From UHGV virus genome UHGV-0206210: a stretch of DNA of 44,081 bases; one strand, given 5' to 3'. This stretch comes from a virus. Below, in pieces: positions 9,426 through 26,044 of the stretch (position 1 is the first letter of the stretch; every line of letters begins with the position of its first letter). Under the pieces are notes generated by a model. It was not told the origin of the DNA. It saw only the letters and a program-made list of their open reading frames with translations, and searched no databases. The translations under genes were made by a program, and so were the position numbers.

Positions 9426-10568
9426 TTAAAAGTCAACGTAATTATTAAACCTATTTGCTAACTGCTCTTTTGCTGTTTTTGATACGTGGGTATATACATC
9501 CATTGTAGTTTGGATGTCAGAATGACCAAGCCTTGATTGAACGTCTTTAATAGAAGCACCGGCTTCAAATAATAACGATGCATGTGTGTGACGAAAGCCA
9601 TGAATAGATATCTGTTTGAAATCATCCGGCAAGTTTTTCATGGCAGTTAGGTACCATTTTCTCGGTTTAGCAGGCGATAATATTCCTCCATCTTCACTTT
9701 GAAAGACTAAACCATCTGGAGACTTTTTTTTGTACTCTTGTAATATAGACACAGTTTTGTCATCAATTGAGATTCTTCGAATAGAAGAAGGAGTTTTTGG
9801 CGTTTGAATATAAAGCCCTGTTGCACTTCTCGAAACAGCCTTGTTTATGTATAATGTTTGTTTTTCCAAATCGATATCAGACCATTTCAGCGCTAATGAT
9901 TCTCCTTTGCGCATTCCGGTAAATGCTAACAAACGAAAATATACAAAAGATCTAAAATTGTTGTTGTTTTCTAAAGCTGCCATAAATTTCTTCAACTCAT
10001 CTTTGTCATAGAAATTCATATCTTTGTCTTCTCTAACTGATTCCTTCCTTACAGGCTTCTTAATCACTTTTGTTGGATTCATATTGATCAATTGCATTCT
10101 TATTGCGTAATCAAATACCAATCCAGCATAATTCATAACCATGCTTGCACGCACAAGCTTCTTGTGCCAAATATTCATTTGATTCTGTGCATCCATCGGT
10201 TTGATGTCTTGTATAGGTTTATTACCAAATGCTGGAAGTATATGATTTTTGAAAACTCGCTCTGTTTTTAGTAACGTTGAAGCTTTAACTGTTGTTTTGT
10301 ATTCCTCATACCATAGATTATATATCTGTTCATAGGTATGAATCATTTGTGGTTCAGACTCTGGTTTTGATAATCCGTTTAGTTCTAAATCAGCGATTGC
10401 TAAACGTGCTTCTCTTTGAGTTCTAAAGCCACGTCTTGTAGTGCGGATTGGTTTTTTGGTGTCTTGATCAATGCCAAGATACAGCTTAAACATATAAGCT
10501 TTTTCGCCATTTTTTTTGACGTATTCTTTTATTCGGATATCCTGTTCTTTCTTAGCCAATTGCTTCAA
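9426..10568 (-). CDS. int: Tyrosine site-specific integrase.
   Basis: C-terminal HGFRHTHASLLFEAG...LGHSDIQTTMDVYTHV (R..HxxR..Y catalytic motif). TTG start. RBS spacing favours the TTG at 10559. Confidence 0.85.
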   Translation of the reverse strand: MKQLAKKEQDIRIKEYVKKNGEKAYMFKLYLGIDQDTKKPIRTTRRGFRTQREARLAIADLELNGLSKPESEPQMIHTYEQIYNLWYEEYKTTVKASTLLKTERVFKNHILPAFGNKPIQDIKPMDAQNQMNIWHKKLVRASMVMNYAGLVFDYAIRMQLINMNPTKVIKKPVRKESVREDKDMNFYDKDELKKFMAALENNNNFRSFVYFRLLAFTGMRKGESLALKWSDIDLEKQTLYINKAVSRSATGLYIQTPKTPSSIRRISIDDKTVSILQEYKKKSPDGLVFQSEDGGILSPAKPRKWYLTAMKNLPDDFKQISIHGFRHTHASLLFEAGASIKDVQSRLGHSDIQTTMDVYTHVSKTAKEQLANRFNNYVDF

Positions 10569-23658: not shown

Positions 23659-24072
23659 TTGAGGACATTAAGCGAGGCGACTAAGAAGAGTCTTGATGAA
23701 GAACTATTTGAATATAATTCGATAGCTTACGAAATTGCACTCAGGAAACTGGAAATCGAAACTACCAGAGAGCAAGATGAAAATGTTGGCGGTGGTAAGA
23801 GCGGGTATATTTCTAAAATACCTGAATCACTAGTGATTAAGTATAGTGAAGATAGCCGAATCCAATATTTAGAAAAGTTGAGAAGTGACATAGAGCAACT
23901 TTACCATGAATGCACTGAAGAACAACGGCTTATTATTGATTTGAGATGGCTATTAAATGAATCAAATACTTGGGAAGAGGTTGCCACGAAAATTCATTGT
24001 TCAGAAAAATCTGTTTATCGTAAAAGAGAAAAGATTTTAGAAAGATATGCGAAGATAAAAGGCAAAATGTGA
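23659..24072 (+). CDS. ArpU-family late-gene transcriptional regulator (sigma-like).
   Basis: GGGAGGG RBS plus TTG start. C-terminal sigma region-4-like helix WEEVATKIHCSEKSVYRKREKILERYAKI. Lies at the early/late junction. Confidence 0.55.
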   Translation: MRTLSEATKKSLDEELFEYNSIAYEIALRKLEIETTREQDENVGGGKSGYISKIPESLVIKYSEDSRIQYLEKLRSDIEQLYHECTEEQRLIIDLRWLLNESNTWEEVATKIHCSEKSVYRKREKILERYAKIKGKM

Positions 24073-24487
24073 CAGGGAAAAGCGTATTATTGTCACAAAA
24101 AACAAGCTAAAATAGTATTATCAGATATCGTCCACAAGCACAACGGCATTCAACTTCCTTTTGATACGTAAAAATTATTCTGTGGGCGATAGTCACTGTG
24201 GCGGAAGTAGAAGACGCAACTAAGGAACACAGTGTTCTGTACGTAGAAGTGACTTTATAGTTACAGCGTGAGTACAAATCAGAACGTGAGTGGGGCAGTA
24301 CCACTCCAGTGACATTGAGATTGAGCAAAAGCACGTGGCAATCAGCTATTGAGTTATCCCAAGGCTTTTGTCGGATAAACAATCTCAAAACACGGGGCTT
24401 AGATCCCAGAAAAATAAGCATGCAGAGGGTAGCTCCCTCAAGTTGGTGGATATGGTTGTACGGAGGACCGGAAGAACCGGCAGCGTC

Positions 24488-24512
24488 ACAGGTTCGAATC
24501 CTGTGTCACCAA
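24488..24512 (+). ncRNA. tRNA-like T-arm and 3' acceptor segment (acagg-TTCGAAT-cctgt-gtcacca). No canonical cloverleaf found upstream. Part of a long non-coding stretch (24073-24600).
   Basis: Exact T-loop consensus TTCGAAT closed by a 5-bp stem. A terminator hairpin (agtcactc-attgc-gagtggct, then ttttatttt) follows at 24562-24595. Confidence 0.3.
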
Positions 24513-24829
24513 TAGGGTTTATAGTTATCCCGACTGCTAGTCAGCGAAAACTTGTTACATAGTATTTTTAGTCACTCATTGCGAGTGGCTTTTTATTTTG
24601 GGGAGGAATGAAAATGTTACAAGAAGCTATTTTAAAAGGTGAAGAAGCATATTTGAAGAAAGCTTCCGAGGATAGACGATTTTCCCTACATGAGTGGGAA
24701 GGCATTAAAGCGATTGTAGATGATAAAAGAGCAGGCGTAAAACTGGATCAAGCGGTTGATCAGCATGCAAGTACGGTACATGCATTTTAAAAGCGTAGCT
24801 AGTCTCCGCAATACATAGAACGAAGCGAG

Positions 24830-26044
24830 GTGGCAGACATTACTAAATGGACGGAACAGCAGGTCAAACGATTGTCGGAGTTGGCAAATGAAGGACTAAC
24901 AAATATAGAGATAGCGCCTATGCTATCAGAGGAGTTCGGCAAAGAGTTCTCATGGCCAAGCGTTAGAAGTAAACGTGCCAGGTTGAATTTGCCACCGAGC
25001 GAAAAGAATATGCGAGTTAAGCAACCGAGTGACCAATCAATCAAAGTAAACGAGCGTCATAATCCTGATGGAACAATCTCTCAAGCCGAGTTTGAAGTAA
25101 AGATGGCATTCTATCAGAAACGAAGTAAAACGCCAGAGGATATCCTCAAGTACAAGGGCTATGATCCGCAAGAGTGGGAAATATCTCAAGTAACCACTAA
25201 TGAGTGGACAACCACTACAGCGGATATCCAGAAGTGGAACCAACAATTGAAGTTTGTGGTTAAGCCAAAACATAAGGCATTCGATCCATCAGCGTTCACT
25301 GATTCAATAGAGCCGGTAAAACTAACCGCAATCAAGACTGGTGACAGAAACTTGTTCATCGGCTTAGCTGATTGGCATTTCGGTATCACTAAGCTAGAGG
25401 ATTTACAAGATAAGCTAGCGAGAATGATTGAAGTTATCTCAAAAGGCTATAAGCAGATTGTTATTGGTCAGCTAGGAGATTTATTCCATAGCAGCCAAAT
25501 TAAGAAGTCAGTCACGATGGCTGGCACACAATTAGATGATGTGGACATGGTTACAGCTATCAAAGACGCACGAGCATTCTTCGATATGTTGATTACTGAG
25601 TGTGTGAGACATTCGAAACAAGTGACTGTCGAACACGCGGGCGGGAATCATTCGGAGAATTTGGAGTACATGTTTCTCTTATACCTAGAAGCCAAGTATC
25701 CGGACATCCAAGTCAACTATCACAACAAATACCGACAAGCATTCATGTTGGATAATGTGGCAATCATGATTACTCATGGGCAATATGGCAAGCGGAAAGA
25801 TTTACCAATGTTGTTCGCTACTGAGTTTAGCGATATATGGTGCAAGGCAACTACACGGGAGATAATCACAGGACATTTTCACACGCAACAGACGAACGAC
25901 TACCAAGGTGTGATTCATCGGCAGCTAGGTACCATTAAGCCGAATGACAGTTACGAGATAGAGAACGGTTGGACGATGGGCAAGAAGGTGTTGCAGTTGT
26001 TTGAATATGATAGTGAAAGGTTGAGGGTGACGTATGACATCTAA
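24830..26044 (+). CDS. Fusion protein. N-terminal HTH (sigma region-4-like) plus a C-terminal calcineurin-like metallophosphoesterase of SbcD/Mre11 type.
   Basis: LSELANEGLTNIEIAPML HTH. Motifs ADWHFG (DxH), GDLFH, GGNHSE (GNHE), ITHGQ, GHFH (GHxH). GTG start is uncertain. Confidence 0.5.
   Translation: MADITKWTEQQVKRLSELANEGLTNIEIAPMLSEEFGKEFSWPSVRSKRARLNLPPSEKNMRVKQPSDQSIKVNERHNPDGTISQAEFEVKMAFYQKRSKTPEDILKYKGYDPQEWEISQVTTNEWTTTTADIQKWNQQLKFVVKPKHKAFDPSAFTDSIEPVKLTAIKTGDRNLFIGLADWHFGITKLEDLQDKLARMIEVISKGYKQIVIGQLGDLFHSSQIKKSVTMAGTQLDDVDMVTAIKDARAFFDMLITECVRHSKQVTVEHAGGNHSENLEYMFLLYLEAKYPDIQVNYHNKYRQAFMLDNVAIMITHGQYGKRKDLPMLFATEFSDIWCKATTREIITGHFHTQQTNDYQGVIHRQLGTIKPNDSYEIENGWTMGKKVLQLFEYDSERLRVTYDI

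Follow-up and report, generated by a model that had tools for sequence, protein, structure and literature searches.

Two tRNA-derived, non-decoding units in a modular non-coding locus of a temperate Enterococcus phage

The non-coding stretch and its two tRNA-like units

The virus genome UHGV-0206210 (44,081 nucleotides, nt; this whole stretch of DNA is referred to here as the window) represents a temperate Enterococcus phage of the casseliflavus/gallinarum group, and contains, at the junction of its early and late genes, a non-coding stretch in which two tRNA-derived units (unit A and unit B) lie between a conserved 5′ hairpin and an intrinsic terminator (Table 1). A preliminary description of this locus, made from the letters of the sequence, had regarded ~750 nt (24073-24829) as non-coding and free of any credible open reading frame (ORF). 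This holds for positions 24073 to ~24607 (~535 nt); the 3′ end, on the other hand, is occupied by a genuine gene of 58 amino acids (aa), and the non-coding part therefore stops short of it. An ORF on the minus strand (24107-24421), which the same description had distrusted, is not conserved among homologous arrays. The open frames of these arrays (49-132 codons) lie on either strand with no consistent frame, and a comparison of 24073-24607 across the relatives found no shared coding frame. The comparison covered ~250 related phage loci (numbered with the prefix L); 49 IMG/VR loci were chosen for encoding the 404-aa protein whose gene lies downstream of the array.

Table 1. Features of the locus; positions are those of the window unless a related locus is named
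Feature	Position	Strand	Description	Basis
RinA-family late transcriptional activator gene	23659..24072	+	137 aa	TIGR01636 phage_rinA, 67.2 bits (cut-off 31.9); phrog_36, E 3.5e-25
Inverted repeat	24069..24096	+	GTGACA...TGTCAC, overlapping/abutting the activator stop codon	sequence
Promoter -10 region (predicted)	24108..24121	+	TAAAAT (24108-24113), TAGTAT (24113-24118)	conservation, promoter scan
5′ leader hairpin P1	24126..24191	+	11-bp stem TATCGTCCACA / TGTGGGCGATA, 44-nt loop	fold, conservation
Unit A	24192..24314	+	tRNA-Leu(UAA)-derived scaffold	fold, relatives
Spacer module G	24315..24425	+	9-bp closing helix TTGAGATTG (24315-24323) / CAATCTCAA (24380-24388) around a branched element	inverted repeat I1
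Leader hairpin of unit B	24425..24439	+	GAGGG-TAGCT-CCCTC, 5′ of unit B	relatives
Unit B	24444..24512	+	degenerate tRNA-like RNA of the tRNA-Lys lineage	flanks, T-arm, Rfam 15.9 bits
3′ spacer Z1	24513..24569	+	part of the conserved core	91-100% identical in relatives; retained in cargo-less 178-nt versions
Intrinsic terminator (predicted)	24570..24600	+	8-bp stem AGTCACTC / GAGTGGCT, loop ATTGC, then TTTTTATTTT	terminator scan
58-aa gene	24614..24790	+	outside the RNA unit; GGAGG 7 nt upstream	phrog_24047, E 4.5e-16; called in public assemblies
404-aa protein gene	24830-26044			phrog_704 'DNA repair exonuclease' match
abiF-motif-like hairpins of relatives	L085 528-564; L072 2036-2072; L191 2998-3034; L244 2501-2542	(-) in L072 and L191		

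Unit B is the element that had drawn attention to the locus. Its T-arm is present as described (acagg, 24488-24492; ttcgaat, 24493-24499; cctgt, 24500-24504), with a 5-bp stem and a canonical 7-nt loop, and is followed directly on its 3′ side by the acceptor-like strand gtcacca (24505-24511), which pairs with TGGTGGA at six of the seven positions and precedes a discriminator A at 24512. The T-loop motif alone is only mildly unusual, because the 11-mer GGTTCGAATCC from this region, which occurs once exactly in the 44 kb, is found twice in the window when one mismatch is allowed, as against 0.44 expected occurrences; its meaning comes from its context. Unit B retains a D-arm-like hairpin, the loop of which contains GG, and has no anticodon arm, a 4-bp stem with a 5-nt loop (CCGG-AAGAA-CCGG) being all that can form.

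Unit A is larger, and was overlooked in the preliminary description together with the conserved 5′ hairpin and the promoter. Its acceptor helix, GTCACTG (24192-24198) with CAGTGAC (24307-24313), is paired at all seven positions and is followed by a discriminator A at 24314; its D-arm, GCGGAAGTAGAAGACGC, is of the class II type, and its 6-bp T-stem (GAGTGG, 24288-24293, with CCACTC, 24301-24306) closes the non-canonical loop GGCAGTA. Both units therefore contain a T-arm with a 7-nt loop stacked on an acceptor helix. A structured insert of 70 nt takes the place of the anticodon and variable arms of unit A, and consists of a 5-bp hairpin with a 3-nt loop and then a 39-nt hairpin, neither of which is the 5-bp/7-nt anticodon arm of a canonical tRNA. 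The whole unit folds in a cloverleaf-like manner on the plus strand (z -2.70), compared with z -0.77 on the minus strand.

Conventional searches pass over both units. ARAGORN, run over the whole window in tRNA and tmRNA modes, predicted no gene of either kind, and Rfam reported no family in the window at its gathering thresholds; in the permissive E-value mode, the tRNA model gave one weak match, at unit B (E 3.9 at the score listed in Table 1, as against a gathering score of 29), which agrees, like the ARAGORN result, with the earlier failure to fold a canonical cloverleaf here. Unit A was reported neither by the Rfam tRNA model (RF00005, 29 bits) nor by ARAGORN, and the remainder of the window yielded only chance-level matches at E up to 10 (SAM-II, GP20-b, JA04, XIST intron). 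Neither program indicated a tmRNA in the window; the tag reading frame of a tmRNA was not looked for. ROOL (RF03087) and GOLLD had no match in the window at the gathering score or at E up to 10, and the detection of ROOL in one relative (L124) demonstrates that the search is capable of revealing it. The abiF motif (RF03085), with its 6-bp outer stem, 3-bp inner stem and CCUCU.AAC.AUG loop, is absent from the window. Tandem Repeats Finder detected no tandem repeats there, so that an antitoxin array of the ToxI-like type III kind is not present, and the direct repeats at the array are short and at chance level. An exact search of viral contigs with a 25-mer comprising the T-arm and acceptor strand of unit B gave zero matches, a BLAST comparison of the interval with phage GenBank entries gave a single relative (phiEG37K), and a scan of a genome collection with an 18-mer of the leader gave one genuine match, in Enterococcus entomosocium, and 14 others that are due to chance. 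A strict minihelix scan of the whole window returned only AT-rich chance matches, and failed to recover the two real units, owing to the 6-bp T-stem of the one and the single acceptor mismatch of the other.

tRNA ancestry and replacement of the anticodon region

The ancestry of the two units becomes apparent when the related loci are compared. The frame of unit A is a true tRNA-Leu(UAA) in one relative (L150) according to ARAGORN, and relatives with large inserts reach scores above the gathering threshold of the Rfam tRNA model (35.7 bits for L042 and 29.8 bits for module A of L004). Among all loci fetched, the frame occurs as 96 distinct sequences, the inserts of which measure 29-113 nt and fall into ~34 unrelated classes; one of these is the bona fide tRNA-Leu(UAA) of L150, and at least 33 are not tRNAs. 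The complete scaffold was present in ~86 loci of one fetched subset of relatives. The anticodon region has been replaced wholesale by folded inserts, and the stems that surround it have been conserved: across 40 distinct versions, 98.7% of the scaffold stem cells are paired, five of the six T-stem pairs have changed on both sides, and the covariation score of the scaffold (0.293) was reached by none of 500 shuffles, a pattern of purifying selection. The best-sampled insert class is itself predicted by RNAalifold to be a long hairpin, with four compensated pairs. The scaffold is found in two subtypes, one with a GG D-loop and a canonical T-loop, and one with neither, to which the window belongs. 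In all 24 copies with a GGCRGTR loop the D-loop contains no GG, as in unit A of the window (D-loop AAGTAGAAGA), and this derived subtype carries at least eight different inserts.

The slot of unit B has a similar history. In five relatives (L077, L081, L082, L120 and L245) it is occupied by a true tRNA-Lys(UUU) with the same leader hairpin, linker and 3′ flank (...CAA-TAGGG), and the T-arm of unit B is shared with the tRNA-Lys(UUU) genes of L077, L081 and L245. One of these, L245, is the E. hirae phage EH-TP1 (PQ571301), whose tRNA-Lys(UUU) at 2790-2862 scores 70 bits with Rfam and is unannotated in GenBank. The leader hairpin precedes true tRNA-Lys genes and degenerate units alike, and its stem covaries among relatives (GGAGG/CCTCC, AGAGG/CCTCT and GAAGG/CCTTC). 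The acceptor stems of the family likewise differ by fully compensated changes (TTGACGTG/CACGTCAA, TTGGTATA/TATACCAA and TTGGCGTG/CACGCTAA). The slot also holds units that ARAGORN labels as Ile(AAT), SeC(TCA), Stop(TTA) or tRNAs with an 8-nt anticodon loop (L142, L177, L084, L026, L027 and L046), which may be tRNAs for suppression or frameshifting, or may represent stages in the loss of the anticodon. The degenerate versions extend to a bare minihelix of 45 nt (L012), and the version found in the window is 95-97% identical in at least nine loci with different neighbouring modules. Of the options that the preliminary description had listed, a degenerate tRNA or tRNA-like structured non-coding RNA was thus the right one, unit B belonging, in degenerate form, to a family that derives from tRNA-Lys(UUU) and has the same flanks. 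An intron-containing tRNA does not fit, as no anticodon stem-loop borders the odd region.

These results bear directly on the principal competing explanation, namely that the two units are decayed genes, a former tRNA-Leu and a former tRNA-Lys that now drift as relics to extinction. In relatives these slots do hold true tRNAs, neither unit is accepted by ARAGORN or Rfam, unit B combines a mismatched acceptor with a weak fold z-score, and unit A lacks the T-loop consensus and the GG of the D-loop. However, under decay the stems should erode like the loops, whereas they have stayed paired throughout the 40 scaffold versions, and the anticodon region should have been mutated point by point, whereas it has been exchanged for dozens of unrelated folded inserts. 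Neither the spread of the derived GGCRGTR subtype with its various inserts nor the near identity of unit B in so many array contexts would be expected of relics, and we consider the decay of both units unlikely.

Conserved core, exchangeable modules and flanking genes

The only phage relative in GenBank, phiEG37K (L001, LC625742), comes from E. gallinarum and has at this locus a gap of 223 bp in which nothing is annotated. The gap corresponds to a homologue of 24086-24191, 10 nt, and a homologue of 24513-24602, so that the window differs from it by an insertion of 321 nt (24192-24512), which ends exactly after the acceptor strand of unit B. In phiEG37K and four other minimal loci, nothing is present other than the 5′ hairpin (P1), 10 nt, the 3′ spacer and the terminator, and the gap of the 49 IMG/VR loci varies from 178 nt to more than 750 nt. 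The constant core thus consists of P1, the 3′ spacer and the terminator, and a variable set of modules lies between them. An RinA-like protein of 100% amino-acid identity precedes different module sets in different prophages, and two assemblies carry an array identical to that of the window; the strain of assembly GCA_009832495.1 (L247) is an example of a lysogen with such an array. Arrays of the unit A type are also found in prophages of other families (L072 and L085), where the promoter and terminator are different ones, and within tRNA islands on a phage contig of 155 kb. As judged from these comparisons, the array is modular cargo within a conserved expression slot.

P1 forms by pairing of 24126-24136 with 24181-24191 (fold z-score -2.3) and is 88-98% conserved in nearly all relatives; a C-to-T change in the window leaves a G-U pair in its stem. 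Its loop (24137-24180) contains the pyrimidine motif CUUCCUUUU in the window and CAACCUCCUUUUGA in most relatives, which is like the 3′ end of 16S rRNA, and an unrelated alternative loop in three relatives (L246, L248 and L250) likewise holds UCUCCUUUC. The motif resembles an anti-Shine-Dalgarno sequence and may sequester a Shine-Dalgarno sequence. The terminator is 90-100% identical across relatives (mostly 97-100%), varies by compensating changes in L072 and L085, and has the GC-rich hairpin and U-tract of an intrinsic terminator. The preliminary description had recognized this hairpin and T-tract, and had assigned them to the T-arm; they instead close a multi-module RNA of ~480 nt. An 8-mer, TAGTCACT, is present both at the 5′ end of unit A (24190-24197) and at the 5′ arm of the terminator (24569-24576); the duplication could allow an alternative pairing of the 3′ strand of unit A with the terminator, or could be a microhomology used in recombination.

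Between the two units lies spacer module G, the 3′ part of which includes a small hairpin at ~24394-24407. The module is kept in L002, L004, L039, L048 and L250 with changes from G-C to G-U pairs (five sequences), and such changes make sense only in the plus-strand RNA. Other modules occur in relatives. One of these, GCAACCGAGG-(20-50 nt)-GTGTAGGTTGC, was found in 72 IMG/VR contigs (for example, L036, 973-1032), contains covarying internal hairpins and belongs to no Rfam family. Another has the same layout of stem, bulge and loop as the abiF motif (Table 1), and matches RF03085 with 26.2 bits in a local search (E 0.019), below the gathering score of 37. This module is ~90% conserved in the Lactobacillus phages P1, P2, Nyseid and SA-C12, where it abuts a tRNA-Gly; in phage P1 the pair lies between terS and terL. 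No Abi_2 gene was seen adjoining the element in these relatives, and it may be an orphan mimic of an antitoxin, the abiF-motif RNA being one that neutralises the AbiF toxin by direct binding (bioRxiv 10.1101/2025.04.15.648962).

It is conceivable that the stretch encodes one large folded RNA of the GOLLD, ROOL or OLE kind, of which the tRNA-like parts would be domains. A length of ~480 nt, a prophage location and an association with tRNAs are what has been described for GOLLD and ROOL (PMC5737381, PMC12286853), and in the 155-kb phage contig (L124) a true ROOL RNA (1140-1726, 264.8 bits) lies 3′ of a tRNA and directly 5′ of a unit A-type tRNA-Leu-like scaffold (1740 onward). The window, however, has no match to ROOL, GOLLD or any other Rfam family, its modules are freely gained, lost and reordered between close relatives, unlike the parts of a single conserved tertiary fold, and the fold z-score of the whole transcript is only -1.85. 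A single large RNA is therefore highly improbable.

The same turnover invites a reading at the level of DNA, in which an attachment site, a cos/pac site or a recombination hotspot happens to contain a fragment of a tRNA, and the preliminary description had likewise considered a cos/pac site and a relic of tRNA-targeted recombination. Phages often have attachment sites that copy the 3′ ends of tRNAs, and the locus is a hotspot of module exchange. On the contrary, both strands of each acceptor helix are present here, the integrase-like ORF (9426-10568) is ~14 kb away, the genome ends of phiEG37K fall downstream of the next gene block and not at this locus, and the substitutions that preserve G-U pairs are specific to the plus-strand RNA. 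A site of this kind is barely tenable. Group I intron, attP and cos/pac readings were rejected on the grounds of size, topology and the position of the phiEG37K genome ends.

The gene directly upstream encodes a RinA-family activator (the label of phrog_36 being 'transcriptional regulator'), and the inverted repeat at its stop codon is a candidate for the block to which the activator binds or for the terminator of the activator gene. Where the regulator is of another type, a different inverted repeat lies at this spot (GGGAAA..TTTCCC, GAGACA..TGTCTC), with a similar AAACGTRTAGTT core, as seen in L002, L008 and others. A promoter scan gave TTGTCA-17-TAGTAT, and a -10 hexamer (TAAAAT, TAAATT or TATAAT) is kept at 24108-24113 in all relatives, from which we infer that the RNA starts near 24120. 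The DNA from the regulator stop codon to the -10 hexamer varies with the type of regulator and usually holds an inverted repeat. Ltr activators bind a regulator-specific block that is located just distal to their own gene and is followed by exchangeable DNA (PMC3753634; see also PMC3152322 for the biology of Ltr/RinA late promoters). A candidate regulator-specific block in front of a shared core promoter fits this published rule.

Downstream, the terminator abuts the ribosome-binding site of the next gene. The order of genes is the 58-aa gene, the 404-aa protein gene, three small overlapping ORFs, an HNH endonuclease gene, TerS and TerL. The 58-aa gene is present in few relatives (L004, L038, L040 and L045) and absent from most, including phiEG37K, and its position directly after the terminator marks a second variable insertion point. 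The 404-aa protein has an N-terminal helix-turn-helix-like region and metallophosphoesterase-like motifs, and follows the array in all 49 loci of its family. Neither a PDB sequence relative nor a PADLOC match was found that would identify it as an RNA-repair enzyme; a part in the healing of RNA ends is conceivable. Between 24614 and 27099 the genes lie tightly together or overlap, and a promoter scan there did not exceed the shuffled expectation. Because of this, the only room for a late promoter is 24073-24125, and the late genes must be reached by read-through of the terminator.

Such an arrangement could indicate a purely regulatory leader of the late operon, that is, a 5′ untranslated attenuator like pR′-6S RNA-tR′ of lambda or put of HK022, in which the terminator would gate late transcription and the tRNA-like parts would only tune folding or read-through. 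The core elements are the most conserved parts of the locus and survive alone in the 178-nt minimal versions, the terminator abuts the first gene in a region with no other room for a promoter, and the activator gene is immediately upstream. This explanation accounts for the core and not for the cargo, which is dispensable in five relatives. Moreover, sets of modules with the same units occur elsewhere, behind other promoters and terminators (L072 and L085) and by ROOL in the tRNA islands of the 155-kb phage contig. As a description of the whole stretch, a regulatory leader is thus quite unlikely.

Proposed role and comparison with known systems

The interpretation that we favour, with a probability of roughly 50%, is that 24073-24607 is an RNA-only transcription unit containing two tRNA-derived, non-decoding RNAs, in which natural tRNA scaffolds carry accessory, possibly counter-defence, RNAs. 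RNase P, RNase Z and the CCA-adding enzyme recognise the helix formed by the acceptor and the T-arm, and since both units have retained this helix, they are predicted to be cut out and stabilised. According to this model, RNase P and RNase Z would release stable small RNAs from the primary transcript late in infection, the tRNA-like parts would serve as processing points and stabilising frames, that is, as punctuation and carriers, and activity would reside in the inserts and spacers. The cargo would most likely be accessory, probably counter-defence, RNA such as decoys or antitoxin mimics, as suggested by the true tRNA-Lys(UUU), the antitoxin-like hairpin and the rapid exchange of modules at a 'moron'-type slot. 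P1 and the terminator are retained even where cargo is absent, and would probably serve late transcription through stabilisation of the 5′ end, controlled read-through or both, and the late genes would be transcribed by passing through the terminator.

Several observations weigh against this interpretation. The counter-defence idea draws on relatives, as both the abiF-like motif and a true tRNA are absent from the window, and a comparison of each module with the rest of the window found no complementarity longer than 12 nt (chance level), so that no antisense target is evident within the window. Unit B by itself folds no better than shuffled sequence (z -0.94) and has an A-G mismatch in its acceptor helix. 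Unit A lacks the canonical T-loop and the GG of the D-loop, and the elbow recognised by RNase P may therefore be missing. The covariation of the scaffold stems largely reflects a few ancestral events between the two subtypes rather than many independent ones. Finally, the terminator may make the stretch simply a leader or attenuator.

It is also tempting to speculate that tRNA-Leu and tRNA-Lys frames are a natural chassis for the expression, processing and stabilisation of fast-evolving structured effector RNAs in phages of Enterococcus and other Lactobacillales, placed, in arrays with other modules such as the abiF-like hairpin, in an RNA-only accessory or counter-defence locus that is driven by a late promoter; we hold this wider proposal as a tentative one, at less than even odds. 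No description of the unit A-frame family was found in Rfam 15 or in the literature searched for natural phage tRNA-scaffold arrays, and the family is best filed as a widespread, unannotated phage non-coding RNA that is derived from tRNA and associated with tRNA islands. Finders of tRNA genes miss such elements, and annotators leave the gap empty, as in the GenBank records of phiEG37K and EH-TP1. The preliminary description was largely right in what it observed, and partly right in how it interpreted the observation; the comparison of related phages, which it had recommended, traced the units to tRNAs and showed that their stems are kept. If the interpretation favoured here is true, the locus would represent phage accessory RNAs of a new class, in which the frame stays constant and the structured payload can be exchanged. 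It would also help to explain the many unannotated gaps beside phage tRNA genes and ROOL/GOLLD, and RNA decoys would join the likely counter-defence tools of Gram-positive phages.

Natural tRNA-like RNAs include tmRNA, the mascRNA of MALAT1, the tRNA-miRNA chimeras of murine gammaherpesvirus 68, the bacterial Y-RNA-like YrlA, and the stable RNAs of the T4 tRNA cluster. In these RNAs, mimicry of a tRNA recruits RNase P, RNase Z, the CCA-adding enzyme or modification enzymes, and in the gammaherpesvirus chimeras the tRNA-like part is a processing handle for the attached small RNAs. To our knowledge, none of them combines one frame with dozens of unrelated inserts. YrlA differs from unit A in having the opposite topology, as its acceptor-like end is closed and its Ro-binding stem is formed by the ends of the RNA.

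The expression signals of the locus resemble the late leader of lambda (pR′-6S RNA-tR′) and the promoters of RinA/Ltr in the succession of an activator gene, a promoter, a short non-coding RNA with a strong terminator, and the late genes, and RinA/Ltr loci share with it a regulator-specific block of DNA directly 3′ of the regulator gene. Unlike the lambda system, RinA-family proteins are activators, and we know of none that acts as an antiterminator. A structured-RNA array in the leader, by contrast, has not been described for the published Ltr loci. As to the payload, phage-encoded RNA decoys are established for ToxIN, and the arrays of relatives contain a hairpin like the abiF motif RNA, which invites comparison with type III-like antitoxins. 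The likeness is limited, as the motif is absent from the window, the match in relatives is below the gathering score and tandem repeats are lacking, and the decoy role is putative.

ROOL and GOLLD are found near tRNA islands, and the linker of GOLLD sometimes holds tRNAs (PMC5737381, PMC12286853). The array shares with these RNAs, and with phage tRNA islands, a location in phages and prophages, co-transcription with tRNA genes and possibly activity late in infection. On the other hand, ROOL and GOLLD are each one conserved large fold, whereas the phage array builds hypervariable structured RNA into a tRNA frame and matches neither in sequence or structure. The closest parallel to the topology of unit A is the engineered 'tRNA scaffold' of Ponchon and Dardel, in which a foreign structured RNA is put in place of the anticodon arm, and the chimera retains the acceptor, D-arm and T-arm in order to be processed and protected by the enzymes of the cell (PMC3753655, PMC3401473). 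That scaffold is a laboratory design, whereas the phage family is natural and evolving, and its processing and stabilisation are predicted from its anatomy. If the units are indeed processed and stable, they would be a natural version of the laboratory tRNA-scaffold trick.

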